Origin: Candidatus Woesearchaeota archaeon
GTDB taxonomy: Archaea; Nanobdellota; Nanobdellia; Woesearchaeales; BM511
Direction: 5' to 3'
Assembly: GCA_023266675.1 (NCBI GenBank)
Contig: JAHFPP010000002.1
Span: forward strand, 1 to 45,734
Length of the DNA stretch: 45,734 bases
The position numbers were made by a program, and so were the translations under genes. Under the pieces are notes generated by a model. It did no database searches and was not told the origin of the DNA. It saw nothing but the letters and a program-made list of their open reading frames with translations. How positions within the stretch are numbered: the first letter of the stretch is position 1; each line of letters opens with the position of its first letter. Below are positions 8,925 through 40,620 of the stretch, in pieces.

Positions 8925-8985
8925 ATTCTTTTAAATTTTTTGCTTTTTTAATGATTTTGTATTCTTATTCATAATTAAATATTAA

Positions 8986-10119: not shown

Positions 10120-10120
10120 T

Positions 10121-11219: not shown

Positions 11220-11857
11220 AAAAACATATTAATAACTATCTTTACACCATCAAGCGGCGTTGTGCCCTTATATTTATCATTATATATTGTTTCAATCGGT
11301 ATCTCCTTAAATTTTAACTTGGATTTTCCGATATTCGCAATCATTTCACTCTCAACGCTGTATCCTACTGATGCCCATTTGATTTTTTTGTATGCGTCGC
11401 TTGTAAACGCCCGAAATCCGCTTTGGGTGTCTTTTACGCTGATGTTATATAAAACTCTTGTTGTAAAATTTATAAAGCTGTTCCCAAATTTCAGTATGAA
11501 CGGCATATTCTTATCAAGCTCTCTGTAACCAAGAACGACGTCATATTTATCAAGCTCTTTTAAGAATCGCGGTATATCCTGCGGCTTATGCTGCCCGTCA
11601 GAATCTATGACAACTATTTTGTTTGCGCCTTTTTTTAGCGCATACTCGCATCCAGTTTTTAGCGCGGCTCCTTTTCCAAGATTTATTATGTGTCGAAGAA
11701 CAGTTACGCCGTAAGATTTTGAAGTCTCAAATGTTCTGTCTTTGGAGCCATCATCAACAACTATTATGTTGCTGTACTTCTTTTTTACTTTTGACAGAAC
11801 GTCTCCTATATTCTTGCATTCATTGTACGCGGGTATTATGATAAAAATATTATCCAT
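11201..11857 (-). CDS. GT2-family glycosyltransferase (polyprenyl-phosphate glycosyltransferase, ArnC/GtrB/Dpm1-like)
   Basis: Motifs IIIPAYNE, VVDDGSKDRT, VIDSDGQH (DxD). 218 aa. Confidence 0.85.
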   Translation of the reverse strand: MDNIFIIIPAYNECKNIGDVLSKVKKKYSNIIVVDDGSKDRTFETSKSYGVTVLRHIINLGKGAALKTGCEYALKKGANKIVVIDSDGQHKPQDIPRFLKELDKYDVVLGYRELDKNMPFILKFGNSFINFTTRVLYNISVKDTQSGFRAFTSDAYKKIKWASVGYSVESEMIANIGKSKLKFKEIPIETIYNDKYKGTTPLDGVKIVINMFLWRLRR

Positions 11858-11863
11858 AAAACC

Positions 11864-14812
11864 TCACTTAAGCTTTACTTTCCATGTTATTATTCGCTGG
11901 CCCGTGATGTCAGTTTTATCTGTGAACTTCTCAAACTTGTCAAGTCCGACACCATCATAGTAAAACAGTCTTGTGAACATGCTTGCTGAAAGTTCATAGT
12001 CCATCATAATTGTAGAATATGATTCCCCTTTCTTAATAAGAGCTACTCCAATAAATCTTCCGTTTTGCGCTGTAAGAACTTTTCCCTTGCTGTATTCTTT
12101 CACATTGAACGTTTCATTTTCGACATATACTAGCGTCTTTGGGTGGAGGTTTCCGTCTTTTGTAGGAACCCACGAATCATGGTCTGTTAGATTTATCATC
12201 ATCCCATTTGAGCATAAAAGGGTTTCATTGTCTTTTTTTGAGCATCCGCTTTCGCCTGACATGTAGCTTGGCCATGGCGCAATCCACTGGTCGCCGTCAG
12301 TTGAAGTGATTTCATAAAATGTTTTTTGCGCATCATTTTCTGATAAACCAAAATCATTCTTCAGTATCTCAATTCCTCTGTCTTTATTGTTTATTACATC
12401 ATTAAACATATGAGCTCTGCTAAAATTCCATATTCCAAAGTGCGCCCAGACGCCTGATTTTCCAACCATATCTTCTGATGTTATATAATAATGAGGAAGT
12501 ATAAGGTTGTCACAGTGCGTGTTTATTAGGATTTCTTCTATCTCTGAATTGCTAAAACCTTTTTTTGTTAAAATTTTTGACGCTGTCTTTTTGTCTTCTC
12601 TAATTATCTCATTAACTATATCTATCGCGTCAACAGTGTTTTTGTCGCTGTTGTTATCACGCAAATTAAGATACTTCTGTATGACATGCGGCGCGTTTTG
12701 CTGTCCGCAGTTTAGCATTCTAAGTATTCCTACAGCAGAATCCTGGTCTGATGTGAGCAGGCTTTTACCGACCCAGTGTATTCTTTCGCCCTGATCTGCG
12801 CCGTCAAAAGTAACACGTCTTTCGCTTATCGCAACAAACCAGTGTCCAAAATCCCACCAAGATGTTATCATGCCGTCTGTCGCATTGTCCTTTATTGCTG
12901 TTAGCGAATCATACCACGCGTCATTCATCATTGTAACGTCGTTTTCCGCTATTGAATATGAATTCTTCACCTGGCTTACTAGAAGAAGAGAGAATAACAA
13001 TGCCATAAGCACATATGAAACTGTTTTGTTAAGCTCAATTTCTTTATGTAAAAGGTTGCTTAAGTAATTGTAGATTATTCCAACGCCGGCGCCTGTTGCT
13101 ATTGCAAATGCAGGAACCATTAGTATTCCAAATCTTATTCCTTTTGTGAATCCGTAAGCTGTTCCAACAAACCATATTATGATAAGCACTGCAAGCTTTA
13201 TGTCAACATCTTCATTCTCTTTGTAATAAATTATTTTTAGTATACCTGCTATTATTGGTATGATTATTACTATTATGAAAAATACCGGGTTGTTCAACTG
13301 GTCTTTGTAGTAAAGGAATCCGAGGTAATACATCATTGACAGTCCAACATATATATTGTTTATCTTGATGTTTCTTTTTGTGTTGTAAAGCAATAATACT
13401 ATGCCGCTTAATGCAAGGAAGAACAGTATTGGTCCGCCCATCTGGCTGATTATTGCTGATAAAGCTGTTGCATTGTTTTCTGCAACAGTTGTCAAAACGT
13501 TTGGCCATATGCTGCTTACACCGACGCTTTTTAATGTCATAACCCCTAAAGGCCCTCTAATTGTTGCAGTGAATGCAGATGCGCCGTTGATGAAGGCGAC
13601 TATAATAAATGAGACTGCAACAAATATTACTGTAACAATTGATATCTCTTTTAGCTGTCTTGCTATTTTTTCCTTATTGTATACTTTGATGAATAAAAGG
13701 TAAGCTACGTAGCATCCTATCATTACAGCTATGAAGTCAAATGTGTACCACCATCCTATCCATGCATAACTGAATAGTCCGACAAATACAGCAGCTAAAA
13801 CTGAGTATATCACCTGTTTTTTGACTTCTTTTGATTCAAACGCCTCAAGGAACATCCACATTATCATCAGTGGGAAAAATATGTTGTACGGGTCTGTGTC
13901 GGCAACGCCGCCAACAGTTCTTGACAAAAGCGAAGGGTTGACACCGATAATCATTGCGGCAAAGAATCCGCCGATGTTTCCGCCGACTTTTCTTCCTATG
14001 AAAAATGCAGGTATTATTGAGAGTCCAATCACAATTACTGACATTAAAAAAACAACAGATGTTAGCTGAACATTATTATTAAAGAATTGCGCAAACTTGT
14101 AAAGGTATACTTCAAAATACATGTGTATTGTTCCTGCGCCAAGGTCGCTTGGAAGTCCCTGCCTTCCGTTTCTTAGCATGTTCATGCTAACGCCGTTAAC
14201 ATAATCAGTACCAAAGTGCCCGTATTTTAAGTAATTCTTCACTTCGCCGTACCAGACGTATGTATCTATATCAGAAAGGTAGATGTACTCTTTTCCGTTT
14301 ACTGTGTATTTGAAATTTGATTTGAAATTCTGAGAGAGCTGCGCTGTCTGCTGCGCTATGACATCCTTGTTGTCAGTTTTAAACTTTTGAAGCTGAGTTT
14401 CTACAAGCGCGTTCTTGTTGTCTGTTGGCAGATTAGGATACTGCTGGTCAACGCTTGTTCGTATTTGGTTTCTGTAATAATTGTCAACTGTAGACTGAGC
14501 CCAATTGTCAGTCATCGGTAAGTCAGCTGGAATCATTCTTATATAAGTTGAGAATAATAATGCGATAAGTATTAATGTAAACGGAATTAAAAGTTTCTTT
14601 TTGCTTTTAAAAAATTCAACTGTCGGCGCAAAGCTTATATCAATGTCTTCTTCGCTTTTTTCTTCTTTATGAGATGTTTTTAACTCTTTTTTTTCGTCAC
14701 TGTCTTTAAACATTCCGCTGAAGAACTTTGTTATAGGCTTAAAATCAATCTGCAAATCATCGTCATCTGAACTTTGCTTTGTATTTTTAACAGTAGCATT
14801 ATGTTTTTTCAT
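11864..14812 (-). CDS. aglB: archaeal oligosaccharyltransferase (STT3 family)
   Basis: Long multi-TM N-terminal region followed by a soluble domain. Catalytic motif WWDFGHW (WWDYG variant) in ...MITSWWDFGHWFVAI.... The track start at 14821 is GTG. The first ATG (MKKHNA) is at 14812. Confidence 0.9.
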   Translation of the reverse strand: MKKHNATVKNTKQSSDDDDLQIDFKPITKFFSGMFKDSDEKKELKTSHKEEKSEEDIDISFAPTVEFFKSKKKLLIPFTLILIALLFSTYIRMIPADLPMTDNWAQSTVDNYYRNQIRTSVDQQYPNLPTDNKNALVETQLQKFKTDNKDVIAQQTAQLSQNFKSNFKYTVNGKEYIYLSDIDTYVWYGEVKNYLKYGHFGTDYVNGVSMNMLRNGRQGLPSDLGAGTIHMYFEVYLYKFAQFFNNNVQLTSVVFLMSVIVIGLSIIPAFFIGRKVGGNIGGFFAAMIIGVNPSLLSRTVGGVADTDPYNIFFPLMIMWMFLEAFESKEVKKQVIYSVLAAVFVGLFSYAWIGWWYTFDFIAVMIGCYVAYLLFIKVYNKEKIARQLKEISIVTVIFVAVSFIIVAFINGASAFTATIRGPLGVMTLKSVGVSSIWPNVLTTVAENNATALSAIISQMGGPILFFLALSGIVLLLYNTKRNIKINNIYVGLSMMYYLGFLYYKDQLNNPVFFIIVIIIPIIAGILKIIYYKENEDVDIKLAVLIIIWFVGTAYGFTKGIRFGILMVPAFAIATGAGVGIIYNYLSNLLHKEIELNKTVSYVLMALLFSLLLVSQVKNSYSIAENDVTMMNDAWYDSLTAIKDNATDGMITSWWDFGHWFVAISERRVTFDGADQGERIHWVGKSLLTSDQDSAVGILRMLNCGQQNAPHVIQKYLNLRDNNSDKNTVDAIDIVNEIIREDKKTASKILTKKGFSNSEIEEILINTHCDNLILPHYYITSEDMVGKSGVWAHFGIWNFSRAHMFNDVINNKDRGIEILKNDFGLSENDAQKTFYEITSTDGDQWIAPWPSYMSGESGCSKKDNETLLCSNGMMINLTDHDSWVPTKDGNLHPKTLVYVENETFNVKEYSKGKVLTAQNGRFIGVALIKKGESYSTIMMDYELSASMFTRLFYYDGVGLDKFEKFTDKTDITGQRIITWKVKLK

Positions 14813-14918
14813 GAAGTACACTCCCGAACTAATATATTTTCTTAAAATCTATAATTCTTTATAAAGATTTCTAATAATCTTACTCTATTAATATATACTC
14901 ATCTGTCTTTATTCATAT

Positions 14919-24518: not shown

Positions 24519-25499
24519 ATGAACAGATTCCTAATCATTTTAACTTTAATTTTATCTATTCTCTTATATGGATGTAATGAAGAGAAAATGTTAAATTTTA
24601 ATCAAAGTAATACTTCTGATTTATTAATACAAAATATAACATTAACAATTGAATCTCAACTAAACTGTCCAGAAATATGTAACAATAATAATACTTGTGA
24701 TATGGGATATTGTTCAAATGATACAAATTATAGCTGTAAATTTATCAATAAAACTCCATGTTGTGGCAATGGAATACTCGAACAAGGAGAAGATTATGGC
24801 AGTTGTAAAACAGATGCAAAAAATTATTCTTTTTATGTGAATATTAATAAAAATGAATCGAATACTGATAATACCTTTGAATTCTTTGGTGATACCTATC
24901 AATTCGACATAACTAATGTAAATAATATCTCAAGAAAATCTTTTGATAGCCATATAAGCCTTTTTATCACAACTAATACTGAAAAATTTGATGAAGAATT
25001 TTATGCGTTAGTTATGGGATGGTACTATTCAAAACCATTCCAATTATATAATGGAGTTTTAGTCTCAATTGATGATACTTATCTGGATAAAGATTTTGTA
25101 AAACTTACATTGACATATAGAGATACTTATCCAGTAGCTCTATCTGATTACAATCTTTCTATCTTAAATCTCACTATTTGTGATGAATATACCCTAAATC
25201 AATCGATAAAACAAATATTAGAAATTAAAAGAAATAAGTTGCCTGACTCAATGATTTATGGTTTATCAGATACACATTTTAATTTAATTAATTTGAATAC
25301 TTCAGAAAATAATTTTATTAATCTAAATGATCTTGATAAAGAAAACGAATGTAAAAATCTAATTTTAAAAATAGGAAACCATCTCTATTATCAAACAAAT
25401 TATTATCTGGAACGAGGATTTAAATTAAGAGATAATCATGTTGAAATTAATAAAGACAGAGGTGAATATTCAATAAATACCACGCTCTCAAGCTGGTAA
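24519..25499 (+). CDS. putative lipoprotein with Cys-rich N-terminal module
   Basis: Lipobox-like ILLYGC after a hydrophobic leader. Contains CPEICNNNNTCDMGYC...CCGNGILEQGEDYGSC. Confidence 0.55.
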   Translation: MNRFLIILTLILSILLYGCNEEKMLNFNQSNTSDLLIQNITLTIESQLNCPEICNNNNTCDMGYCSNDTNYSCKFINKTPCCGNGILEQGEDYGSCKTDAKNYSFYVNINKNESNTDNTFEFFGDTYQFDITNVNNISRKSFDSHISLFITTNTEKFDEEFYALVMGWYYSKPFQLYNGVLVSIDDTYLDKDFVKLTLTYRDTYPVALSDYNLSILNLTICDEYTLNQSIKQILEIKRNKLPDSMIYGLSDTHFNLINLNTSENNFINLNDLDKENECKNLILKIGNHLYYQTNYYLERGFKLRDNHVEINKDRGEYSINTTLSSW

Positions 25500-25625
25500 T
25501 TTAGGTTTAAATTATTTTTTTGTAAAAACTATCATTAAATATTTTTATAATCATTAATATAATCTGAAAAATTCTAAGAACCATTCATTATCCATCTCTT
25601 CTCTTTATATTTTTCTTCAGAAAGG

Positions 25626-25633
25626 TTTATATA
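25626..25633 (+). promoter_or_regulatory. BRE/TATA promoter candidate for the RHH/fibre operon
   Basis: GAAAGGTTTATATAAT lies 66 nt upstream of ATG 25699. The leader contains two ATACCACAAAA copies (25638-25648 and 25678-25688). Confidence 0.4.
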
Positions 25634-25698
25634 ATAAATACCACAAAATATGTTATTATTACATAAAATAACATAATATACCACAAAAATGAATTAAC

Positions 25699-25833
25699 AT
25701 GCCTGAAATAAAAATAGACTTAGATGACGCGCTTCTAGATAAAAAACTGCGAATCTACATGGCTGAAAATGACATTAAATCCAAAGAGAAGGCAATCCTA
25801 GACATACTCAGGAAAAAACTGGAGAAAAAATGA
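25699..25833 (+). CDS. 44-aa ribbon-helix-helix-like small protein (copy 1)
   Basis: Not in the ORF track because it is under 60 aa. Translation MPEIKIDLDDALLDKKLRIYMAENDIKSKEKAILDILRKKLEKK. Pattern is beta-strand, helix, turn, helix. Confidence 0.55.
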   Translation: MPEIKIDLDDALLDKKLRIYMAENDIKSKEKAILDILRKKLEKK

Positions 25834-25859
25834 AGACTAAAAAAATTGGTGTGAACTGA

Positions 25860-25994
25860 ATGCCTGAAATAAGAATAGATATGAATGACGCTTTTTTAGA
25901 TAAAAAACTGCGAATCTACATGGCTGAAAATGACATTAAATCCAAAGAGAAAGCTATACTCAAAATACTAAACGAGAGATTAAACAAAAAATGA
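25860..25994 (+). CDS. 44-aa ribbon-helix-helix-like small protein (copy 2, tandem paralogue)
   Basis: Translation MPEIRIDMNDAFLDKKLRIYMAENDIKSKEKAILKILNERLNKK. 55 nt identical to copy 1 (25897-25951 versus 25736-25790). Its stop overlaps the next ATG (ATGA at 25991-25994). Confidence 0.55.
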   Translation: MPEIRIDMNDAFLDKKLRIYMAENDIKSKEKAILKILNERLNKK

Positions 25995-27625
25995 ATAGCG
26001 ACAAAATCCAAGACAAAGAGAAACGGGAGTTTATAAAAAAAGGACTCTTGGCAATCGGCGTTGGCGGAGCTGCAGCACTACTCAGTAAAGTTGATTTTGT
26101 TGGTGCAGAACGTCGTTCTATGACTCCAATAACACCAGCATCTGGCGGAACTGGTAACGCGTTTACAAAGTTTACAGGTCCAACAGGTACTGAGAAAACT
26201 TTTACATTGCCTAACGCTAACGCTTCTTTGGCTATTCTTGGAGTAAATACCTTTACATCAGACCAAACAATAAACACTTTGACAGTGGGTCTTGGTGCAG
26301 GAAGTGTTGCAACGAATACCGCGATTGGAGTAAGTGCACTTGCAGCTAATACTACTGGGGCAACTAATACATCCATTGGATATAATGCTTTACCTGCAAA
26401 CACCATTGGATTAAGTAATACTGCTGTTGGTGCAAATGCTCTTGTTAGTTCTGTTACTGGTTCAGGAAATACCGCAATTGGTGTGGAATCACTTTACACA
26501 ACTACAGGAGGAGAATCAACTGCTGTGGGTTATCAAGCATTAAAGGTAACTACATCAGCAGGTTATCAGAATACTGCAGTAGGTTATCAAGCATTAATGT
26601 CTAATACAACAGGATGCAGATCTACTGCTGTAGGTCACTCAGCATTAGCATCATATGCTCATAACGACGATGCTACTGGTAATACTGCCGTTGGATATAA
26701 CGCTCTTGGATCATCTACTATATCGACAAATACTGCAGTAGGACAATCGGCTGGAAGTAGTCTGACCACGGGCAGTAACAATGTATTTGTCGGACATGAG
26801 TGCGGTCCTGAGAGTGGGACTATAGGTAACACAGTAGTTATTGGTCGTGCTTGTGTAGGTGGTGGTAGTGGTGTTTCAATAGGGTCATATACTAGTAGCA
26901 AAGGTAGCAACAATATCTCTATAGGATTGTTTGCTGGAAGCGCATTAACAACAGGTACAAATAATATACAAATTGGGATTGAGGACAACGGAAACAGTTT
27001 AACAACTGGAACTCGTAATACTATCATTGGAACATATTGCTATGCATCAGGAGTAGGAGCGCAGGGACAGATTGTCATTGGCTCTTATGGTATGACAGGA
27101 CAAGCAGATAATAATGTCACGATAGGAAGTAATAGCGGAAAAATTTACAATGCATATACTTCAAACGCTACTTGGACACAGACTTCTGACGGTAGAATGA
27201 AAAAGAATGTTACTGAAGATACACTTGGTTTGTCTTTCATTAATCGTTTGAGACCAATTACTTATCAATGGAAACCAACAAATGAATATCCAACTGATTT
27301 CCCAGGTTATGATATTGAAGGTAAGAATAGTAAAGATACAACAACTATTATTCATGGATTAATAGCACAAGAAGTTAAAGCTGCACTTGATGCAGAGGGA
27401 TGTTCTACATTCAATGGATGGGATGAAGGTTATGATGGAATTCAAGCCATTTCTCGTGAAATGTTTATCACCCCATTAATTAAAGCAATTCAAGAAGTTA
27501 GTGCAGAGAATAATAAATTAAAATCTGAAAATATTCAATTCAGAGTAGATCTTGAAAAATTAAAATATGAATCATTGTCAAGAAAAGATTTTGAAGAATT
27601 TAAAAATAATTTTTATAAAAAATAA
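25991..27625 (+). CDS. tail-fibre/spike-like protein: Tat-like N-terminal signal or anchor, NTAVGxxAL beta-helix repeats, C-terminal intramolecular-chaperone (Peptidase_S74-type) domain
   Basis: N-terminus KREFIKKGLLAIGVGGAAALL. About 20 periodic repeats (NTAIGVSALAANTTG, NTAVGYQALMSNTTG, and similar). C-terminus TSDGRMKKNV...LRPITYQWK...IHGLIAQEVKAAL followed by coiled coil, matching the endosialidase-chaperone signature SDxRxKxN...GxIAQEV. Confidence 0.75.
   Translation: MNSDKIQDKEKREFIKKGLLAIGVGGAAALLSKVDFVGAERRSMTPITPASGGTGNAFTKFTGPTGTEKTFTLPNANASLAILGVNTFTSDQTINTLTVGLGAGSVATNTAIGVSALAANTTGATNTSIGYNALPANTIGLSNTAVGANALVSSVTGSGNTAIGVESLYTTTGGESTAVGYQALKVTTSAGYQNTAVGYQALMSNTTGCRSTAVGHSALASYAHNDDATGNTAVGYNALGSSTISTNTAVGQSAGSSLTTGSNNVFVGHECGPESGTIGNTVVIGRACVGGGSGVSIGSYTSSKGSNNISIGLFAGSALTTGTNNIQIGIEDNGNSLTTGTRNTIIGTYCYASGVGAQGQIVIGSYGMTGQADNNVTIGSNSGKIYNAYTSNATWTQTSDGRMKKNVTEDTLGLSFINRLRPITYQWKPTNEYPTDFPGYDIEGKNSKDTTTIIHGLIAQEVKAALDAEGCSTFNGWDEGYDGIQAISREMFITPLIKAIQEVSAENNKLKSENIQFRVDLEKLKYESLSRKDFEEFKNNFYKK
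26039..26101 (+). repeat. 63-nt block identical to 27676..27738
   Basis: aaaggactcttggcaatcggcgttggcggagctgcagcactactcagtaaagttgattttgtt, encoding KGLLAIGVGGAAALLSKVDFV in both genes. Confidence 0.9.
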
Positions 27626-27627
27626 AA

Positions 27628-29169
27628 ATGAAAGAGAATAATATTCAGGATAAAGAGAAAAGAGAGTTCATCAAGAAAGGACTCTTGGCAATCGGCGTTG
27701 GCGGAGCTGCAGCACTACTCAGTAAAGTTGATTTTGTTAGTGCAGAGAGAAGAATCTCATCAGTTAGTACAAGTGGAGATCTTGCTATTAATTCCAATAA
27801 ATTCACTGTTGCAGCAAATACTGGTAACACCATCATTGCTGGGACTCTTGGGGTGAGTGGTGATTTTGCTGTTAATACTAATAAGTTTACTGTTGCAGCG
27901 TCGACTGGTAACACTGTTGTTGCTGGAAATTTATCAGTTACAGGAACAGCGCAATCTACAGGTATGTTTGATGCAGGTTCAACAACACCATCGCATACTA
28001 CTCGTTTAAATTATGACGGTTATCTTTATGCTACAAGGTTTTATGGTGACGGCTCTCAGCTAAGCAGTCTGCCAAGCGCATCTATTACTCCTTCAACTAG
28101 AACTTCAAATACAATTCTTGCAGCAGGTGATAAAGGAAATTTAATTGATATAACTTCTGGAACATTCACTCAAACATTTACCGCAGCAGCAACTTTAGGC
28201 AGCGGTTGGTATTGTTATATAAGAAACTCAGGAACTGGGGAAATCACACTTGACCCAAACAGCACAGAAACAATTGATGGATTAACAACTTATATTATGT
28301 ATCCACAAGAGTGCAGACTAGTTTTATGCAATGGTACTTTATTTACTACAATTGTGATGACACCTTTTAAAATTGTTATCACATCAACACAGGCACTCAT
28401 CACACCACCCGGATATAATTACCTCGGCATGGATTTAGTTGGAGGAGGTGCCGGTGGTAGTGAAGGCACCGGTGGGCAAGCAGGTGCAGGCGGCGGTGGA
28501 GCAGGATGCCGTTTCAAAACATTTCAGATTTGTCCAAGTGCAGGATCATCTAATACAGTTACAATCGGAGCATCAGCAACATATAATGCTGATGGCAATT
28601 ACACATCTTTCCTAAATCAAAAGGCGTATGGTGGATTGTGTGGTTACAACATAGATACATGGACAACAGCTGGAGGTAATGGTGGAGGTCCATTTGCCAG
28701 TGGTGCACCACATGTAATGGTGTCATCTATTAGTAATTCTGGAAAAAATTTAGGTCTTGGTGGAGGTATGCACGTTTCCAATTACAACGACGGAAATTGG
28801 GCAACATGGGGTGGCGGGCAAGGTGGCGGCAGCGGCGGCAATGGAGGCTGTTCAATCTATGGACCAGCAGGAGGTGGTGCTGGTGGATATGGTGCGTCAG
28901 GAGGCGACGGCGGAGATAGTAATGCTAACGGAACAGGCGGTGGTGGGTTAGGTGCAACATCATCCGGTGCAAATGGTGCTAACGGGACGACGCACGCAGT
29001 TACAGGTATGGGAACAGGCGGTGGTGGCGCATACGGAGGCGGTGCATCAGTAGGTGGAAATGGAGGATTTCCCGGAGGTGGTGGTGGTGGTAAAGGTGCT
29101 GGTTCTTCTGGTCACGCAGGAACAGGTGGCGCAGGTCAAGCAACTATTTGGGGGATGATTACACTATGA
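27628..29169 (+). CDS. fibre-associated protein with the same N-terminus and a C-terminal glycine-rich domain
   Basis: N-terminus KREFIKKGLLAIGVGGAAALL is identical to the upstream gene. Contains NKFTVAANTGNT..AG.L.V.G repeats and YGDGSQLSSL. The domain starts ITPPGYNYLGMDLVGGGAGG, is followed by long GGxGG tracts, and ends GGAGQATIWG. Confidence 0.7.
   Translation: MKENNIQDKEKREFIKKGLLAIGVGGAAALLSKVDFVSAERRISSVSTSGDLAINSNKFTVAANTGNTIIAGTLGVSGDFAVNTNKFTVAASTGNTVVAGNLSVTGTAQSTGMFDAGSTTPSHTTRLNYDGYLYATRFYGDGSQLSSLPSASITPSTRTSNTILAAGDKGNLIDITSGTFTQTFTAAATLGSGWYCYIRNSGTGEITLDPNSTETIDGLTTYIMYPQECRLVLCNGTLFTTIVMTPFKIVITSTQALITPPGYNYLGMDLVGGGAGGSEGTGGQAGAGGGGAGCRFKTFQICPSAGSSNTVTIGASATYNADGNYTSFLNQKAYGGLCGYNIDTWTTAGGNGGGPFASGAPHVMVSSISNSGKNLGLGGGMHVSNYNDGNWATWGGGQGGGSGGNGGCSIYGPAGGGAGGYGASGGDGGDSNANGTGGGGLGATSSGANGANGTTHAVTGMGTGGGGAYGGGASVGGNGGFPGGGGGGKGAGSSGHAGTGGAGQATIWGMITL
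27676..27738 (+). repeat. 63-nt block identical to 26039..26101
   Basis: Direct comparison of the two 5' coding regions. The first mismatch comes immediately after the block (g versus a), followed by 7 more identical nt. Confidence 0.9.
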
Positions 29170-29420
29170 GAGCGCATGTTATTGAAAACGTAAAAATTGT
29201 AAACATAATTGAAATTGAGAGACTAGATTTAATTCCAACTCTGAATTTAATTGATGCATCACTTGGCGGCTCAATCGGAGATTACTTTGATGGTAAAAAT
29301 TTTATTAAGCCAAAAGAAGAATTAAAATCAGATTTAAAAGAAATCAAATCTGAACTTTCAAAAGAAGAACTGTTAAAGCAAATTGAAATATTAACAGAAA
29401 AAATAAAGATGTTGAAATAA
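29166..29420 (+). CDS. 84-aa protein, phage-like N-terminal fold plus coiled-coil tail
   Basis: ATG 29166 forms an ATGA overlap with the upstream stop (the track start is TTG 29148). MRAHVIENVKIVNIIEI...IGDYFDGKNFIKP resembles a widespread small phage ORF pattern (xIENGxVxNxI...IGxxYDGxxFxxP). K/E-rich heptad-like C-terminus. Confidence 0.5.
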   Translation: MRAHVIENVKIVNIIEIERLDLIPTLNLIDASLGGSIGDYFDGKNFIKPKEELKSDLKEIKSELSKEELLKQIEILTEKIKMLK

Positions 29421-29425
29421 AAAAA

Positions 29426-29569
29426 TCTCTGAGACTTTTAGGTATTAATTCATTTATATGCATTAAAAAAACTAAAGAAGGAAAAATAGGATATGATGTA
29501 GTTGTTAGAACTAAGAATGCAATATTTTTTATGAATCTTATTGGTTCCAATAATTCAAGAAATATAAAA
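29426..29569 (+). pseudogene. start-less remnant resembling the C-terminal half of a LAGLIDADG-type homing endonuclease
   Basis: An open frame different from the preceding ORF reads SLRLLGINSFICIKKTKEGKIGYDVVVRTKNAIFFMNLIGSNNSRNIK. Pattern LGIxSxI...G..Y.V.V...N...F...IG. No upstream start codon, and the frame runs into the tRNA gene. Confidence 0.3.
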
Positions 29570-29571
29570 AA

Positions 29572-29667
29572 TGGGGGTATTGGGATTCGAACCCAAATCC
29601 GACGCTCTGGAGGCGACTATTTAAGCCGGCGTTTAATACGCCACTAGCCAGGTTATACTATACCCCC
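29572..29667 (-). tRNA. tRNA, probable tRNA-Trp (anticodon CCA) with a roughly 22-nt insertion (putative non-canonical intron) between D-loop and anticodon stem; no encoded CCA end
   Basis: Minus-strand read: GGGGGTA TA GTAT AACCTGGCTA GT[GGCGTATTAAACGCCGGCTTAA]AT A GTCGC CTCCAGA GCGTC GGAT TTGGG TTCGAAT CCCAA TACCCCC A. The acceptor stem (7 bp) and T-arm are perfect. The anticodon loop has U33 and CCA. The insertion forms its own hairpin, GGCGT/ACGCC. Confidence 0.75.
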
Positions 29668-31739: not shown

Positions 31740-34700
31740 TCACTGCCAAATTCTCACCTCCGCAATTGCAGGTCCCCAAGGATACGGAACTTTATTAACA
31801 GATATAGCGCCAATAACAAGATTATTCTCTACAAGATTCACATCAATCTTTCCGTTACTATTCAAATCAAGATTATTCAAAAGCTTGTAAACTGCGTCGT
31901 CATAAGTATCATTCACATTATAAATAATCCCGCTGCTTTTGTAACTGCAATTATTGCTCCCTAAATAATTCTGCGGTACTTTAAGCGTTGATACAGAATT
32001 ATCCTCAAACTGCACATTCCAATTACATCCTATAGCATACTCAAGTACCTCGCTATACGAAATAGTTGATTTCATTAGGCCGGTATAAAAAAATGTGTCA
32101 TTTGGAGAGCATCCTGTGGAGTTTACAGGTTCAATTCCTGTTCTTATAGTTATATTATTTATTTTATCATAATTCAAAAGCAAAGGCGAAAAACCAACAA
32201 TGTAAGGGTCACCTAAAAATTGATAATCCGAGTTAAACCAGCTTAAATTATGCGTTGTCGCATTATTTACAAACAGGTAATCAGTCCATTTACTTGATGA
32301 ATAGCTAGAAACTTTGGAATCAACAAGTCTAAGTTTAGAGGATATATTACTGTAAAGTGTGCAGTTCAAAATTCCTCTGTTCTCAAAATTTGCTGATATT
32401 TCTCCTATTTCTGGAGCATGAATAGGTGATGTGTAGTTTATTTCAATATACGATTCCTGACCATATAATTTTGACAGCGTTGGTGAACCAGTTACGACAA
32501 TTTTTTGCTCTACACGTGAAACATCCATTATCTCTGCTGCAACATCATCATAAAAATTACTTAAGACAGCTGTGTCATTGCTTCTAAGATACATTCCTCC
32601 ACCGCAATCTGCTATTCCTTGAAGAGTTGATTCATCAGCATCAGAACTGTAACCAACAGCATAAACAGATATACCCCAATTTCGTCTAGCGTCACACGAA
32701 GCCTGTATTGCGTCATCCATTGATGTATCTGCTGTGTCATCATTATCAAGGTCAGCAGTAACTCCCTGCTCTGAACATTCCCTGTTTGCCTGTCCATCAG
32801 TCATTAACAGCATGGCTTTATTTCGCGAATCATTTATCCTAAATAATTCCATATTAAATCTGCTAAACTCACTACTTGTAAAAAGTTCAACTGCAAAAAC
32901 ATTTTCTCCTTCCCTAAAATAACTATTGGCAATCTGATGCCCGACAGTATTCCAATAAGTCGCATTATTCACTGTATTATCACTGAACACCAAAACGCCA
33001 TTAAGATAAACTTTTGCACTGTTATCTGACATAAGATTCATGAATATCTTGCTTAAAGAATTCAAATTTGTAATATTAAAATGTTTTCTAAGATAATAAG
33101 TCTCAGTAGTGTTAGATGCTTTTAAACTTACATTATCAAACTTTGCAGCACCCCACTTGCTACTGCTATCAGCATTTAACTTAGCACCAAAATCCAGATA
33201 ATAGTGTCCTGGTCCTTCCACATAATCTTTGATGTTAGTTGAAAAAAATCCGCTAAACTCAGTATCAGGATTATTTTGATTTGCAACTTCAAGTGTATTA
33301 TCTCCATCAACATTTGAAATTTCTGAACCAAGATAGTGCTCACCGCTATTTGGACTTATCCATCTTGATTTTATCCATACTTCATCAACAATGCTGCTAA
33401 ACGGATTTGCAGGACTACTCTCCCATTCATAATTGAATTCAAGAATAAATTTTCCATTGCTTGCGTTTATTACAGCATAAAGTGCAGGTGTTATATCAAC
33501 ATCAACACCATAAAATCCCTGACAGTCATAATTAGAACACCTGTTTTGTGAAGGGGAACCTGTTGAGAAATTTAATTTTAAAACTCCATTTGTAGGACCA
33601 GAAAAATTCACAGTAAAATTAGTCTGGCTGCTAACAATACTTACCCATACAGCTGAATAATTTAAAACGTCTTTAATTATTGAATTATCATCCATATACG
33701 CAATCTGCAGACTTAAATTTCTGTTACTTTGACTGCTCCATGCAGACAATATATTTGAATTTGTTATTATCTTTGATATATTCCCGCTTCCAATTGGTGT
33801 CATATTTCCAATGTATTCAAAACCTGTCCCATTATACATTTTTAATAACAACAGCGGAAGTGTGCCATTATTTGCTGAAGATGCTGAACTGTTATAAGCG
33901 TTTATATTCACTGTTACAGTAATATTCTCAAGCGATGAGGATGGCAGAACTCCAGTTAAAACTCCTGAATAATTTCTGACAGACCCATTAATATCAATCT
34001 GATTATTTGGAAATAATGAATAATTGATTTGCATTTTTATAAAATCACATCGAATCTGGTTTGAAAGATGGGAAGAATCTACATTTGTTACAAGCTTAAC
34101 TCTTGCATTATTTGCGCTTGAGGCATTCCAAGTTAAACCCCATAATTCGACAAGACCATTTGTGTTATTTCTTAATGTATAAGCTGTCCCAATATCTCCT
34201 GTATCATCAACAGTCGGAGACCATGAAGTTCCATTATTATTGCTTAGCTGGATATAAAATGTATTTGTTCCTGTGCTAGGATTTACACTGCAATTACTGT
34301 TTACAAGCAATCCATTAATAACTGTTGAACTTGTCAAATTATCCAATGGAATATTTGTGTTAAAACCATACCAAGAATTATTTCTATAAGACGCTGTTCC
34401 ATTTCCAAAAGTTATTCCTGGTCCATACATGTTGGATGCGTTTATCCAACCCTTTCCAATTGATAAGTTTGAAGATGGAAGAACAAGACTGCTAACATAT
34501 TTGCCAACGGTATTATTTAACTGTAAGAATATTGTTGAATTTTCCAAATCCGCACTTACATTAGTAATCGTAATTAATGTTCCTGACCCGTTCCAGTCCC
34601 AACCATCATCACCTCTTCCAAGTCCAAACGTATTAGCAGTGGAATTCCAACCATGTGTGAAATCTGCTTCTGGAGATGAAAGATCGCTTGAATTTTCCCA

Positions 34701-36470
34701 CATTACCGGGTGAGAATAATTCAGGAATATGATTCCTCCCCCCATATCGGTGTTTATGTTTGGATTTCCAAAAATGTGACCAAGTGTTGCATTTCCAGTC
34801 TTCCAACTGCTTTCATTGGCATATGTAAAATTATACCACGAATTATTAGAAGCATCATTTTTTGGGGTGCCGTTAAAGCTTGTATTTGTAAAACTCCATA
34901 CGCTGCCATTTGCAACAAGCACTGTCCTATTAATTCCTATAGAAAGAATATTTGTTGCAGAATTTATTCCGCAGCATATGCATGTCCATAAAATTGTCGA
35001 ATAATTATTTATGTTGCTAGTTACAAGCGTAATATTATTTGAAAGATTAAGTGTTTTATCTGTTGTTGTTGAATAGCTTACAAGACCAATTTTATTCCCA
35101 GACACGTTTAACATATTTGTTGCAAAGGTTTTATCAAGACATTTGGCAACACTGAGTCTGTTGGTATCTGAGTCATTTATATGAGGGTCAGTGCAGTTTC
35201 TTGTAACACCATCATTACCACTATTCATCTCATAACCCATGCTGCCGGATATATCAGTGCTTATTACGGCATCAGCAGAACCTAAATACTCAACAAAATA
35301 ACTAACATTCTCTGCACCCATCCTTATCGGGATATTTTTTGTTGACAAGAATGAATAATTCATTCCAAGACTTCCAAGCACGCTTCCGTCAAGGCATTGA
35401 ATTGTTGTTGTAGTTGAACTCGTATCAGTAAAAACAGTTGAGTTTCCAATCTTAAGATAAAATGTTGAATTGCTGGAATTTGTATGGTCAACAAAGTATT
35501 TTACGCAGACACTCATATCTGTTATATCACCTGGAATGTATGTTGAGGAATAAATATTTATAAGGCCGTCAATTGATGGAAAGTAAAATTTTGTATAACC
35601 TTCAGGTGCCGGGTCATACATCTGTTTTGTTTTATAGTCAAATCTTACAAACCCTCCGCTTAGGTATGCAGTGTCAAGACTTCCAAGGGGAATTATTGAA
35701 ATGTTATTTCTTACACCAGGAATTACGCTGTTTTTACAAGTTGAAAGATTCCAAGAATCAGCTGTCATTACTCCTGATTTCTTTGTCAGATTTATTCCGC
35801 ATTTTACATTGTTAAAATATATATTGAATATGTCACCTATATCATTTCCTATCTCAATCTCTGCGTAAATATTTGTAATATTCGCGTCGATTGGTATATC
35901 ATCTGTGAAATCAGAAATGTTTCCCTGGCCGATAAATCCTCCAAAAAAGATGTAGCTTGAATCCTTTTTTTCTTCAAGCCCCTCAAGATAAACCTTTGAT
36001 GTTGAACCTCGAATCGGCTTATATCTCTCAATTCCGGAAATCAGTCTTTTTGCAGTCATTACTTTCTGGCCTACAGGCTTTCCATTTGTATAAACCAATT
36101 CATCATTTATTGATATTGAAAACCCGTAATTACCAGGTATCAATTCAGCGCTTATATTTCTTGCAAGATTCTCAGCTTCAACAGTCTTATTAAGAACATA
36201 AAGTTCACCGATTGTTTCAAGAAGGGTGTTATTGAGATTTTCAACAACACCGCTTGCTATTATCTCCTTCATATATGAATTATTTATTTCATAAGTTTTT
36301 ATGCTAGAAAAACCTTTTACGATATCATATGACATGTAGCTTAAATCAGGCGTTTTGTCTTCATGCACAAAATTCTGGGAGAGTGATATCATGGCTATGA
36401 CTATTATCAGCCCTGCAAACATTGCATCAGTTGTAAAAAGTATTCCCTTATCTTTCTTTTGACCAAACAT
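31740..36470 (-). CDS. 1576-aa pilin-like (class III signal-type N-terminus) giant adhesin with a vWA domain interrupted by a very large insertion
   Basis: N-terminus MFGQKKDKG|ILFTTDAMFAGLIIVIAMISL. MIDAS motif DISGSM at aa 406-411 (nt 35255-35238). WTCICCGINSA at about aa 495-504. The vWA resumes with AMLLMTDGQAN (D at aa 1225, nt 32798) ...VYAVGYSSDADESTLQGIA. Very many N-x-S/T sequons. Confidence 0.8.
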   Translation of the reverse strand: MFGQKKDKGILFTTDAMFAGLIIVIAMISLSQNFVHEDKTPDLSYMSYDIVKGFSSIKTYEINNSYMKEIIASGVVENLNNTLLETIGELYVLNKTVEAENLARNISAELIPGNYGFSISINDELVYTNGKPVGQKVMTAKRLISGIERYKPIRGSTSKVYLEGLEEKKDSSYIFFGGFIGQGNISDFTDDIPIDANITNIYAEIEIGNDIGDIFNIYFNNVKCGINLTKKSGVMTADSWNLSTCKNSVIPGVRNNISIIPLGSLDTAYLSGGFVRFDYKTKQMYDPAPEGYTKFYFPSIDGLINIYSSTYIPGDITDMSVCVKYFVDHTNSSNSTFYLKIGNSTVFTDTSSTTTTIQCLDGSVLGSLGMNYSFLSTKNIPIRMGAENVSYFVEYLGSADAVISTDISGSMGYEMNSGNDGVTRNCTDPHINDSDTNRLSVAKCLDKTFATNMLNVSGNKIGLVSYSTTTDKTLNLSNNITLVTSNINNYSTILWTCICCGINSATNILSIGINRTVLVANGSVWSFTNTSFNGTPKNDASNNSWYNFTYANESSWKTGNATLGHIFGNPNINTDMGGGIIFLNYSHPVMWENSSDLSSPEADFTHGWNSTANTFGLGRGDDGWDWNGSGTLITITNVSADLENSTIFLQLNNTVGKYVSSLVLPSSNLSIGKGWINASNMYGPGITFGNGTASYRNNSWYGFNTNIPLDNLTSSTVINGLLVNSNCSVNPSTGTNTFYIQLSNNNGTSWSPTVDDTGDIGTAYTLRNNTNGLVELWGLTWNASSANNARVKLVTNVDSSHLSNQIRCDFIKMQINYSLFPNNQIDINGSVRNYSGVLTGVLPSSSLENITVTVNINAYNSSASSANNGTLPLLLLKMYNGTGFEYIGNMTPIGSGNISKIITNSNILSAWSSQSNRNLSLQIAYMDDNSIIKDVLNYSAVWVSIVSSQTNFTVNFSGPTNGVLKLNFSTGSPSQNRCSNYDCQGFYGVDVDITPALYAVINASNGKFILEFNYEWESSPANPFSSIVDEVWIKSRWISPNSGEHYLGSEISNVDGDNTLEVANQNNPDTEFSGFFSTNIKDYVEGPGHYYLDFGAKLNADSSSKWGAAKFDNVSLKASNTTETYYLRKHFNITNLNSLSKIFMNLMSDNSAKVYLNGVLVFSDNTVNNATYWNTVGHQIANSYFREGENVFAVELFTSSEFSRFNMELFRINDSRNKAMLLMTDGQANRECSEQGVTADLDNDDTADTSMDDAIQASCDARRNWGISVYAVGYSSDADESTLQGIADCGGGMYLRSNDTAVLSNFYDDVAAEIMDVSRVEQKIVVTGSPTLSKLYGQESYIEINYTSPIHAPEIGEISANFENRGILNCTLYSNISSKLRLVDSKVSSYSSSKWTDYLFVNNATTHNLSWFNSDYQFLGDPYIVGFSPLLLNYDKINNITIRTGIEPVNSTGCSPNDTFFYTGLMKSTISYSEVLEYAIGCNWNVQFEDNSVSTLKVPQNYLGSNNCSYKSSGIIYNVNDTYDDAVYKLLNNLDLNSNGKIDVNLVENNLVIGAISVNKVPYPWGPAIAEVRIWQ

Positions 36471-36987
36471 AGGTTACCATCTCAATTATTCGTACGCTGC
36501 TGTTATTATTATCTCTTAAAACAACAAACCTTGTTATTGATGAAATGTGAGTTGGAGACTCAAGCGATTCAATATTTGTATTATTGATTCCCTGCTTGCC
36601 AATAAACTTTTGATTTGTTATATTTAATACGTTTCCGTTATAATCAGTAAAAAATATGATATAATCATATTTAGTTTTTAATAGAGTTCGCGCTTTATCG
36701 TAATCATCTCTAGTCATATTTGAAAATAATTCAAGTTTACCAAGCATCAATGTGTAATCATTATCTGTGAATCCGATTCGCACAACGTTTGTTGAGTTCC
36801 AGTCATCAGGGTAACCTTTTGTTGTAAGATAATCCGTAATTGTTTTTGTCTCTGACATGACATTGTTTTCAATATTCTCTGTTCCAATATTCTGATTTGT
36901 GTAAAAAGAAAAAAAAATAAGTATCATCATTGTTATTATTACTACCGCGATTATAAGGTCCTGCGTAAATGCTTGGGCTTTTTTCAT
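36448..36987 (-). CDS. pilin-like protein (class III signal-type N-terminus)
   Basis: MKKAQ|AFTQDLIIAVVIITMMILIFFSF. 179 aa. 23-nt overlap with the giant gene. Confidence 0.6.
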   Translation of the reverse strand: MKKAQAFTQDLIIAVVIITMMILIFFSFYTNQNIGTENIENNVMSETKTITDYLTTKGYPDDWNSTNVVRIGFTDNDYTLMLGKLELFSNMTRDDYDKARTLLKTKYDYIIFFTDYNGNVLNITNQKFIGKQGINNTNIESLESPTHISSITRFVVLRDNNNSSVRIIEMVTYVWSKER

Positions 36988-36996
36988 AATATCCAG

Positions 36997-37374
36997 TCAA
37001 CATAATTCTATATTTAAGCATATTTTGCCGTTAATGTTTCTTATAGTGTTTTCTCCTTTCTTTATATTTCCTGAAATATTTGGAAGACTTGCTATAAGGT
37101 CAATATTATTGTAGGTGATAATTAGGTCGCCGCCTGTTATAGAGATGTTATAATCGACATTGTTAAGTTTTAAAGGTACATCAAAATTTCTAAAATATCC
37201 TGGTTCAACTTTGGTTGCCAAAAAAAGTTCATTTTCAACACTCACCAAAATATTTTTTGCAATTATTACGTTCTGCTCATCTACCTGGTCCTTGAAAAAA
37301 TATGTGAGTGTCCCAATCAGAAGTATGCCTATAGTCAAAGACACACCAAGCATGATGATGAATTCAGCAGACAC
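36997..37374 (-). CDS. pilin-like protein (DUF361-type SAEFII N-terminus), start problematic
   Basis: (GTG)SAEFIIMLGVSLTIGILLIGTL. The only in-frame start is GTG 37374, which leaves no leader peptide (see finding). Confidence 0.55.
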   Translation of the reverse strand: MSAEFIIMLGVSLTIGILLIGTLTYFFKDQVDEQNVIIAKNILVSVENELFLATKVEPGYFRNFDVPLKLNNVDYNISITGGDLIITYNNIDLIASLPNISGNIKKGENTIRNINGKICLNIELC

Positions 37375-37382
37375 CTGCGCAG

Positions 37383-37814
37383 TTACGTTTCGCTTACCGA
37401 TACATAATCACCCTCTGATTTTATGGCAATAAGATGAACTCCTTGCACTGTTGAGATGTTTCCGCTTATATTAATTGGTGTTATTTGGCTTATATCAAGA
37501 ATAACATTATCTGATGTTTTATAATAAATTATGATTTCTTTGTTTTGAAAAGTCATGTTTTCAATACCGCGTGGAATATTTACTTTTAGTGTAGTCTTTG
37601 AAGGCTCACCTTGATAATACATCTCCTCCGCCTTATACGCTATCTCCCTTGCAATCTGAGACGCCTGTGAAATAGCAATATCAGATTTTATATGCTCAGA
37701 CTCTGTAGCAAATAGAAGTATTGTCGGTATCAAAAGAACAAGCGTAAAACCCATCATCACAAGATATTCTATGCTAAACTGCGCCCTACTAAAAATACGT
37801 ACCTCTTTTTTCAC
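37383..37814 (-). CDS. pilin-like protein with canonical archaeal class III signal peptide
   Basis: (GTG)KKEVRIFSRAQ|FSIEYLVMMGFTLVLLIPTILLF. GGGTGA lies 6 nt upstream of the GTG start. Confidence 0.7.
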   Translation of the reverse strand: MKKEVRIFSRAQFSIEYLVMMGFTLVLLIPTILLFATESEHIKSDIAISQASQIAREIAYKAEEMYYQGEPSKTTLKVNIPRGIENMTFQNKEIIIYYKTSDNVILDISQITPINISGNISTVQGVHLIAIKSEGDYVSVSET

Positions 37815-39659: not shown

Positions 39660-40286
39660 TTATATTCTAAATTTACTATATAAAAATCTCTTTAAAAAAT
39701 TAAGATTACCCTTATCTAGTGAAAATTTATTCATATTCCTTCTAAGATATTTTACTCTTAACTTAGTTAAATCTTCTGAGTTATCATAAAAAGCATCATC
39801 AAATTCATCCATATCTTCAGAATATTCTTGTAAGATACTCCACCAATATTCATGTTGACTTAATTTATCTCCTCTTTTTTTAATAACTTTTTTATCAACA
39901 TTTTCAATTAACTCCCTGTTTTTCTGTAATTCAATGTATTCTGCTTTTGAAAGTTTATTTTGTGTTATTTTTAATAGTGCTTTCTTTGTAATATCAGCTT
40001 TTTTAGAAGCTCCGATAATTTTCAAAGCATCAACAGCATCATATGCAAATATCCCTGAAGAATTAAAAAAATACTGTCCATACCCACCATTACTAATTTC
40101 ACCTTCTAACATAAATGTAATATAATTTACTCTAATTGGTTCCGGAAGAGACATTACTAATTTATACTGTTCATCCCACTGTTCTTTGATTACATCATTC
40201 ACAACATAATCTACTAAATACTGTTCAATTTTCTCATCAGTCAATAATTCAATTTTTTCCTTTGATAATTTATTTCTTGAATTCAT
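39660..40286 (-). CDS. DUF4375 / DMP19-like (DNA-mimic or immunity-type) domain protein
   Basis: Contains VNYITFMLEGEISNGGYGQYFFNSSG, matching the NGGFxQ(F/Y)FxN core of the DMP19 C-terminal domain family. Confidence 0.5.
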   Translation of the reverse strand: MNSRNKLSKEKIELLTDEKIEQYLVDYVVNDVIKEQWDEQYKLVMSLPEPIRVNYITFMLEGEISNGGYGQYFFNSSGIFAYDAVDALKIIGASKKADITKKALLKITQNKLSKAEYIELQKNRELIENVDKKVIKKRGDKLSQHEYWWSILQEYSEDMDEFDDAFYDNSEDLTKLRVKYLRRNMNKFSLDKGNLNFLKRFLYSKFRI

Positions 40287-40620
40287 TTTGTAGTAACTTT
40301 AAGTATAATACTTCTAATTAATATAAATATCTAATTATATCTTAAAATCTTAATTTTTGAAATACATAATTCTCTTTCTTTTAGAGATAATTTCTAATTG
40401 AAAATAATCTTAATATACCTAACTATTGTTACTTTATCCGGGTTCCCACTGGACGCACTGGACAGCTGTGCACGAGAAGTTTATAAACTAATTCTCTTTC
40501 TTATTTTTAGTTTTTACTTATATTTTAATCACAATTTGTAAGTTCAACTGCCAAATTATGATTTACTCAAATAAATAAATCATTTACGCAGGTTTCACGT
40601 GAGAAATTCAGTGATATAAA

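Follow-up and report, generated by a model that had tools for sequence, protein, structure and literature searches.

Candidate phage-derived fibres with a shared Tat-like leader in a chained operon of a woesearchaeal contig

The window analysed here is a complete contig of 45,734 nucleotides (45.7 kb, GC ~35%) assigned to a Candidatus Woesearchaeota archaeon (assembly GCA_023266675.1, contig JAHFPP010000002.1). The element under study is a block of five chained cistrons on its plus strand (25699-29420; Table 1), which encode two ribbon-helix-helix (RHH)-like proteins, two large fibre-like proteins, here called P3 and P4, and a small protein, P5. We consider it fairly probable that this operon specifies cell-encoded, exported fibres of phage origin. 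The best reading of the data is that the virion-docking N-termini of phage fibres have been replaced by a lineage-specific, cleavable signal of the twin-arginine translocation (Tat) type, with K-R or R-R in its motif, on a chromosomal archaeal operon. A domesticated viral receptor-binding module, with adhesion as its presumed function, is therefore favoured over a provirus. A sequence-only reading of the same DNA, made without database searches, had offered both as alternatives. The present results strengthen domestication (the leader appears selected, the sister loci are cellular and the cargos are of phage type) and speak against a provirus, since there is no attachment-site (att) repeat and the codons are native.

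By its domain content, its catalytic dyad and its predicted fold, P3 is a member of the S74 family of intramolecular-chaperone fibres. It is composed of a Tat-like leader (aa 1-39), a conserved post-leader 'GGTG' box (aa 40-80), beta-helical or YadA-like repeats with a period of ~17 residues (aa ~100-390), and a Peptidase_S74 chaperone with a coiled coil (aa 399-544). The endosialidase-type chaperone signature noticed in the sequence-only reading was borne out by Pfam, in which residues 399-470 match Peptidase_S74 (PF13884) with E=1.3e-10 and 41.8 bits (cut-off 22). P3 also matches PHROG 4636 'tail spike' (8e-48), and its homologues number more than 6,500, all of them with an S74 domain. Identity amounts to 28-33% with tail fibres of cultured phages and to 44-52% with metagenomic homologues. 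Residues S399, D400 and K404 are invariant in an alignment of 58 sequences; P3 carries TSDGRMK, in the S-D-x-R-x-K context, and its Ser-Lys catalytic dyad is intact. From what is known of the S74 family, P3 would be expected to cleave itself at Ser399. The AlphaFold2 (AF2) model places short strands at a period of ~17 residues over aa 110-390, as in a beta-helix or a YadA-like roll. In Foldseek, the C-terminus matched the MyRF ICA domain (7dc3; E=6.5e-3, probability 1.0, TMt, the TM-score on the target, 0.50) and, more weakly, the endosialidase chaperone 3gw6 and 3gud, at a per-residue model confidence (pLDDT) of only ~65-85 in this domain.

The second large protein, P4, has the same leader (aa 1-39), a repeat stalk (aa ~45-150) and a TNF-like and glycine-rich head (aa ~150-513) that ends in GGAGQATIWGMITL. 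Its stalk (aa 45-120) resembles cyanophage fibre proteins and 'YadA-domain structural' proteins. The head was predicted with pLDDT >90 (aa 150-513) and, on this model, it is the TNF-like plus glycine-rich lattice fold that is common to solved phage fibre tips. It matches the structures of the Pam3 fibre gp24 (7ypx_A, 2.3e-6) and the Bxb1 tail tip (9d93_Qa, 5.7e-6), while the glycine-rich domain of ALK/LTK is a weaker match (E~0.02-0.1). Against the viral structure library BFVD there were 318 matches at E<=1e-3, mostly 'glycine-rich domain-containing protein' entries of Caudovirales and collagen-like proteins of megaviruses. P4 itself has no Pfam match even at E<=5, so that PF21722 (Gly_rich_2) was not reached. 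Many P4 homologues hold PF21722 as a precomputed annotation, and a re-scan of one of them (P0126) gave E=0.0099, under the cut-off. The glycine-rich domain of phages and giant viruses that had been suggested for P4 is thus recovered by structure (7ypx and the 318 viral matches) but not by the Pfam model. A second glycine-rich protein is encoded at 43916-45734 (plus strand) and runs off the end of the contig. It has an N-terminus of the classical general secretory (Sec) or transmembrane type, and its N-terminal region is rich in N-glycosylation sequons (NxS/T). The resemblance that the sequence-only reading had expected here is confined to the final 'GANGAVRIIWG' strand, the one part that hhalign could place on the profile of the P4 family (87%), and a BLASTP search gave no match.

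P5 has no signal peptide. By eye, its N-terminal ~50 residues look non-helical and are followed by a Lys/Glu/Leu-rich, heptad-like C-terminal stretch. An ORF (open reading frame) of 84 aa overlaps the orthologue of P4 (P0122) in the same manner in another contig. P5 and the DUF4376 protein of a sister locus (L001) share colinear patches only, at non-significant scores. The pattern that had been called phage-typical in P5 was not substantiated, as neither PHROG nor a tblastn search of phages detected a phage relative. By analogy, its position and its two-part architecture make P5 a candidate fibre-assembly chaperone for P4. The glycine-rich fibre gp24 of phage Pam3 requires a separate chaperone, gp25, whose N-domain is beta and whose C-domain is helical and trimerises (PMC9608196). 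If P5 does assist P4, the folding of P4 would have to precede export, because P5 is signal-less, and folding before export would fit the Tat route better than Sec.

The feature that separates P3 and P4 from ordinary phage fibres is their N-terminus. Their first 42 residues are nearly identical (…DKEKREFIKKGLLAIGVGGAAALLSKVDFV[G/S]A before the predicted cut, ERR… after it), and the two proteins diverge abruptly thereafter. The near-identical, Tat-like N-terminus reported for both proteins from the sequence alone holds at the DNA level and in its anatomy, with successive n-, h- and c-regions and a VxA site: nucleotide identity is 86% over 128 nt, and it drops from 83% over the first 126 nt to 35% over the next 126. 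The DNA of the h- and c-regions is 100% identical over 60 nt, which suggests that recombination also homogenises the leader cassette or moves it. Between genomes the leaders differ at 14-18 synonymous and 6-8 non-synonymous codons and, within the window, the KREFIKK motif is written in different codons in the two genes; this predominance of synonymous differences indicates that the leader peptide is under purifying selection.

All seven leaders examined have a charged n-region of 18 residues with K-R-E-F-I-K, an h-region of 15 uncharged, Gly/Ala-rich residues (Kyte-Doolittle 2.1-2.3), and a c-region with a lysine (Lys33 in P3 and P4), followed by a VGA, VSA, VNA, VDA or ANA site and then by E/D-R-R. 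Five of the six Sec-type or lipobox-like signals on the contig have n-regions of 3-9 residues and h-regions with Kyte-Doolittle values of 2.6-3.7. The other secreted proteins of the contig carry a lipobox-like or class-III signal, and in a six-frame search of the window P3 and P4 alone had Tat-like N-termini. Compared with the Tat consensus S/T-R-R-x-F-L-K, the leaders read K-R-E-F-I-K, with Lys for one Arg in most copies. In two homologous leaders, those of P0250 and P0253, the K-R position is taken by a true twin arginine (SRREFVKNGL and GRRDFIKKWL). In its residues, the leader has the physico-chemical properties of a Tat signal, namely a long n-region, a weakly hydrophobic h-region, a basic c-region and an AxA-type site. 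We infer that the shared N-terminus is a selected Tat-type signal peptide, and that export would follow this route.

The distribution of the leader is also informative. A profile of the leader alone, searched against 1.84 billion representative proteins, retrieved only 20 proteins at E<=1e-3, which makes the leader rare, with the match always at or near the N-terminus. Their cargos include fibre stalks, a Gly/Cys-rich head (weak PF21722), small beta-rich heads (weak BclA_C/C1q) and others. The exact string KREFIKKGL followed by a hydrophobic stretch also occurs N-terminally in precursors of bacterial radical-SAM proteins and flavoproteins, which belong to the typical substrates of Tat. A codon-level scan for KREFIKKGL found no match among 2.9 million contigs of IMG/VR. 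The same scan gave 10 matches in GTDB representatives and 15 in JGI metagenomes, all of them bacterial or due to chance, with the archaeal leader in none.

Relatives of the two fibres fall into leaderless and leader-bearing proteins. The nearest leaderless relatives of P3 (P0006 and P0012, 44-46% identity) lie in tailed-phage genomes, as does the nearest one of P4 (P0126, 52% identity over aa 141-334). These genomes encode SU10-type portal, capsid and adaptor proteins, a holin and endolysins of the GH19, GH108, SLT or lysozyme types, and on the strength of these genes they are bacteriophages. Among leader-bearing proteins, P0003 is the only full-length homologue of P3 (43% identity), and the leader is found on two further genes of its locus, L001. 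P0122 is a leader-bearing orthologue of P4 with 59% identity and an identical C-terminus, followed by its overlapping 84-aa ORF; the short proteins P0241 and P0242 also bear the leader. A post-leader box, ERRSMTPITPASGGTGNAFTKFTGPT.TEKTFTLP, is common to P3, P0122, P0241 and a 279-aa protein of L001. In L001 three leader-bearing genes are consecutive (1444-2283, 2696-4351 and 4353-4868) and are accompanied by the gene for the DUF4376 protein. P0241 and P0243 (102 aa) consist of little beyond the leader, the post-leader box or a stalk, and a short hydrophobic C-terminal tail (…AIAMSILFGW and …AVVISMVFGD).

The sister modules adjoin cellular genes, among them a Na+/H+ exchanger, NrdD and radical-SAM proteins, and one lies directly beside an S4-S11-RpoD-L18e-L13-S9-RpoN cluster, which is an archaeal arrangement. 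In two of three sister loci a winged helix-turn-helix regulator (MarR-like or DUF7343) is found upstream, in the place of the RHH-like proteins of the window. The window itself encodes cellular functions such as adenosylhomocysteinase, an Lrp-type regulator, glycosyltransferases and a run of large surface proteins, together with an AglB-type STT3 oligosaccharyltransferase and a geranylgeranyl reductase family protein (TIGR02032 subfamily; not archaea-specific). Archaeal origin is indicated by the latter two, by an intron-like insert in a tRNA, by class-III pilin-like signals and by the ribosomal and RNA-polymerase gene cluster of the sister contig. Searches of IMG/VR with P3 and P4 as single-protein loci gave no confirmed relative, by a method that reaches close relatives only.

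Several observations weigh against a Tat-exported, domesticated fibre. The window shows no signature of TatA or of TatC. Nearly all leaders are K-R, and K-R in place of R-R weakens Tat targeting in model organisms. Sec targeting or anchoring without cleavage could also be the function of the 15-residue h-region, and phages attach alternative fibres to one baseplate site by means of conserved N-termini. The RHH-like proteins, for which Pfam and PDB sequence searches gave no match, and P5, which has none in Pfam, PHROG, NCBIfam or phage tblastn, are without significant family assignment. Finally, sampling of the family is thin: the sister loci obtained by word search (P0003, P0122, P0241 and P0242) all come from one ENA sample, ERZ27297709, and one of them also from one Logan run.

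The first three of these points bear on the rival that survives best, in which the fibres are likewise domesticated but are secreted by Sec or held by an uncleaved signal anchor, and fold and trimerise outside the cell. This would suit the n/h/c anatomy of the leader as well as the lack of Tat genes in the window and the prevalence of K-R, and S74 chaperones, being intramolecular, could in principle act after export. We nevertheless regard it as unlikely, because the long n-region carries the full x-R-x-F-I-K consensus, with RR in two homologues, and most Sec signals of the contig exceed the h-region in hydrophobicity. In addition, a c-region lysine and two arginines after the cleavage site disfavour Sec export in model bacteria such as E. 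coli, and a signal-less P5 could not assist P4 outside the cell. Within the exported-fibre reading we thus rate the Tat route above both Sec and anchoring by an uncleaved leader.

A second rival, which we hold to be quite unlikely, is a decayed provirus: a tailed virus would have integrated at the tRNA-Trp gene and lost all but its tail-fibre module, the present block, with the shared N-terminus as the old virion-attachment domain. The fibres are indeed of phage type, conserved N-termini on divergent fibres are common in phages, and the 3' end of tRNA-Trp(CCA) faces the block (Rfam RF00005, 43.4 bits), as the sequence-only reading had stated. The tRNA gene has an insert of ~25 nt in the D-loop region, which can form a hairpin of its own (GGCG…CGCC) and is probably a non-canonical archaeal intron; because of this insert it is missed by ARAGORN. 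Between P5 and the tRNA lies a stop-free stretch of 50 codons (29422-29571, plus strand, frame 2), which the provirus reading could claim for its faint resemblance to LAGLIDADG_3. The match is below threshold (E=0.14 and 12.9 bits against a cut-off of 22.5, at the C-terminal end of the model), so that the homing-endonuclease-like remnant proposed earlier was rejected as evidence; the stretch may be a degraded homing-endonuclease fragment or a product of chance.

The remaining evidence argues against a provirus. Families of integrase, recombinase, capsid, portal, terminase, sheath and baseplate proteins are absent from the contig ORFs of at least 100 aa, in agreement with the earlier remark that integrase, capsid, portal and terminase are lacking. 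Nor does the window contain a second copy of the tRNA 3' segment with <=3 mismatches or any relevant repeat family. GC3, the G+C content at third codon positions, is 0.198 in P3 and 0.249 in P4, compared with 0.16-0.39 in other genes, and codon usage is native; the raised total GC of P3 and P4 results from their Gly/Ala/Thr content. The ORFs are all intact, the catalytic dyad is kept, and a second contig preserves the overlaps. The leader is built like a signal peptide, has an RR/KR motif, occurs at several sister loci beside cellular genes, including the one by ribosomal-protein genes, and is absent from IMG/VR. The sister locus L001 has no tRNA, which deprives the 'classic integration geometry' noted earlier of its weight. 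Given the lack of virus genes and of an att repeat, the native GC3, the cellular sister loci, the tRNA-less L001 and the leader-free IMG/VR, the tRNA adjacency looks coincidental.

For P3 and P4 as components of virions in general, the N-terminus is signal-like and not of the particle-attachment type, and there are no virion genes in the 45.7 kb or in the sister contigs. Least probable is that the fibres serve a particle whose genes lie elsewhere (a tailocin, an extracellular contractile injection system (eCIS), a gene-transfer-agent-like particle or a resident virus), with the N-terminus as its baseplate-docking adaptor: eCIS and tailocins use phage-type fibres, S74-bearing ones included, and occur in archaea (PMC12923769), and several paralogous cargos share one N-terminus as interchangeable fibres would, but KR/RR-x-F-I-K with a 15-residue Gly/Ala/Leu stretch and a VxA site corresponds to no known baseplate adaptor, the window and the gene tables of the sister contigs hold no sheath, tube or baseplate genes, and cargos down to ~60-130 mature residues are unlikely to be particle fibres.

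The operon that carries the fibres is compact (Table 1). ATGA overlaps join the second RHH-like gene to P3 and P4 to P5, and a gap of 2 nt separates P3 from P4. The five-gene coupled chain described in the sequence-only reading therefore stands at these three junctions, but not between the two RHH-like genes, which are 26 nt apart and do not overlap. This gap is bridged by a mini-ORF of nine codons, which has an ATGA overlap with the stop of the first RHH-like gene and abuts the start of the second in TGAATG; from this arrangement it is a possible translational coupler of the two. The RHH-like genes are tandem copies with 80% nucleotide identity. Their label draws on weak matches to PHROG 4738 'transcriptional repressor' (E=0.002) and to the N-terminal (RHH) region of NikR (E=0.016), but finds no echo in Pfam or PDB. 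Upstream, a TTTATATA box ~65 nt before the first start codon belongs to a candidate archaeal promoter; the sigma-70 and terminator scan is uninformative for an archaeon. The two copies of the ATACCACAAAA repeat are the only exact ones in the window, and from their position the pair is a candidate operator to which the RHH-like proteins might bind.

Table 1. Features of the fibre operon and its surroundings (positions in the window)
Feature	Position	Strand	Evidence or remark
Candidate archaeal promoter: purine-rich GAAAGG resembling a B recognition element (BRE), then TTTATATA (25626-25633)	25620-25633	+	read from sequence
ATACCACAAAA direct repeat, 11 nt, two exact copies	25638-25648, 25678-25688	+	spaced 40 nt, between TATA box and start codon
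RHH-like protein copy 1, 44 aa	25699-25833	+	weak PHROG/NikR matches, tandem duplicate
Mini-ORF, 9 codons (MKTKKIGVN)	25830-25859	+	read from sequence
RHH-like protein copy 2, 44 aa	25860-25994	+	ORF call, duplicate of copy 1
P3, 544 aa	25991-27625	+	PF13884, PHROG tail spike, AF2 model
P3 leader MNSDKIQDKEKREFIKKGLLAIGVGGAAALLSKVDFVGA, predicted cleavage before ERR	25991-26107	+	leader comparison
P3 Peptidase_S74 core with predicted autocleavage site T-S399/D-G-R-M-K404 (cut at the slash)	27185-27400	+	Pfam, alignment, Foldseek
P4, 513 aa	27628-29169	+	structural matches, phage-genome homologue
P4 leader	27628-27744	+	leader DNA comparison with P3
P5, 84 aa	29166-29420	+	ORF, kept overlap in second contig
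tRNA-Trp(CCA), operon neighbour, not demonstrably part of the operon	29572-29667	-	Rfam RF00005

If the fibres are exported by Tat, the operon could work as follows. The RHH-like proteins would autoregulate it, repressing their own promoter through the ATACCACAAAA repeats by the TATA box, and the cistrons would be translated as a coupled chain. P3 would fold and trimerise in the cytoplasm by means of its C-terminal S74 chaperone, which would then cut itself off at Ser399. The glycine-rich head of P4 would be folded with the aid of the signal-less, co-translated P5, by analogy with Pam3 gp25. The folded fibres would next be exported by Tat, and the leader would be removed at the VxA site. They may then be released, or be docked on the envelope through the post-leader box, and the ligand of their heads would be a surface molecule, probably a glycan, of another cell or of a substrate. 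Tat export of a folded trimer is a coherent route, because P5 is signal-less and phage fibres fold in the cytoplasm.

Other regions of the contig also encode surface-related or possibly acquired functions. Directly upstream of the operon, a gene of GC 0.25 (24519-25499, plus strand) specifies a protein that starts MNRFLIILTLILSILLYGC…, with a lipobox-like signal and no family match; from this signal it is a candidate archaeal lipoprotein. On the minus strand, 31740-37814 is an archaeal type-IV-pilin-like cluster, with a protein of 1576 aa that has a class-III-like N-terminus and a weak VWA match, followed by pilin-like small ORFs (36448-36987, 36997-37374 and 37383-37814; e.g. 'RAQFSIEYLVMMG'). 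By its gene content this cluster looks like a giant pilus-tip adhesin set. An ADP-heptose-type pathway is encoded beside AglB/STT3 and other GT2 genes at 1677-14821 (minus strand). It comprises a SIS/GmhA-like protein, a PfkB kinase, a cytidylyltransferase, a HAD phosphatase, two epimerases and a GT9 heptosyltransferase, and is apparently a sugar route like that of the bacterial lipopolysaccharide core, feeding archaeal protein glycosylation. Finally, a gene pair of GC 0.25 (39660-41841) encodes a DMP19-like protein, of the DNA-mimic or anti-restriction type, and a protein with an Mrr_cat restriction-endonuclease domain; from these assignments it is possibly a small acquired defence or anti-defence islet.

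Comparison with known systems shows which parts of the operon are familiar. P3 shares with S74 phage fibres, such as endosialidase K1F/endoNF, the GA-1 neck appendage and the T5 L-shaped fibre, the S74 domain with its S-D-x-R-x-K dyad, a repetitive beta-helical body and an ICA-like C-terminus. It differs from them in having a signal-like leader in place of a particle-binding domain and in belonging to a cellular operon without virion genes. The head of P4 has the TNF-like plus glycine-rich lattice of the group formed by Pam3 gp24, S16 gp38-type adhesin tips and Gly_rich_2 (PF21722), and a small ORF, the chaperone-like candidate in the place of gp25, follows directly after the fibre gene. In P4, however, a putative export leader and a long repeat stalk stand where a helical, baseplate-docking bundle would be, and PF21722 is not reached. 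With half the size of gp25, P5 shows no similarity in sequence to tail fibre assembly (TFA) proteins. MYRF, a cellular protein, uses a phage-type intramolecular chaperone for trimerisation and self-cleavage, and its structure (7dc3) is the best structural match of the P3 C-terminus; it is a eukaryotic membrane-bound transcription factor of unrelated function and architecture which, unlike P3, has no fibre body.

As for export, the leaders agree with Tat signals in the x-R-x-F-I-K motif, the long n-region, the weakly hydrophobic Gly/Ala h-region, the basic c-region and the AxA-type site, and in the RR of two homologues. They depart from them in that K-R is the rule and in that unrelated cargos share the whole leader of ~40 aa as one conserved cassette, an uncommon situation among Tat signals. 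Natural K-R variants of the Tat motif are found in Salmonella TtrB and in the chloroplast Rieske protein. Fibres of R- and F-type pyocins and of eCIS, including those of the Photorhabdus virulence cassette (PVC) kind, are also cases in which cells reuse viral receptor-binding modules. Those fibres are assembled on cytoplasmic particles and released by lysis, whereas P3 and P4 each have their own putative export signal and no particle. The BclA protein of Bacillus is a secreted trimer with a TNF/C1q-like head, and some leader-bearing relatives have weak BclA_C/C1q-like heads; BclA is not derived from phage fibres and, in contrast to the window's fibres, has no S74 domain. Within an incomplete library of the literature, no account came to light of archaeal phage-type fibres that are exported singly under a leader of their own, which is consistent with the statement in the sequence-only reading that no such architecture was known.

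A bolder proposal, which goes well beyond exported fibres as such and which we put forward as speculative and unlikely, is that a small clade of uncultivated, possibly DPANN-type archaea has a dedicated export cassette, made of the ~40-aa K-R/R-R leader and a docking box. This would be placed on captured phage receptor-binding proteins (S74 fibres, glycine-rich tips and TNF/C1q-like heads), which would be exported pre-folded as the cells' own 'tail fibres' for attachment to partner or prey cells. The partner or prey could possibly be bacteria, given that bacteriophage fibres are the nearest relatives. The host-attachment device of a DPANN-like episymbiont suggested in the sequence-only reading is likewise a speculation. 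If P3 and P4 are indeed cell-encoded, exported fibres, they would be a clear case of a cell appropriating viral receptor-binding proteins as individually exported fibres, at the surface or secreted, and not as parts of a particle. They would also represent a natural use of Tat for folded cargo, as cytoplasmic chaperones would have to bring the fibres to their folded, trimeric state ahead of membrane passage, and the leader cassette could be of use for tagging such folded trimers for export in archaea. For uncultivated small archaea, in which partner recognition is largely unknown, the fibres would be concrete candidate adhesins, and their leader a search tag with which more of them may be found.

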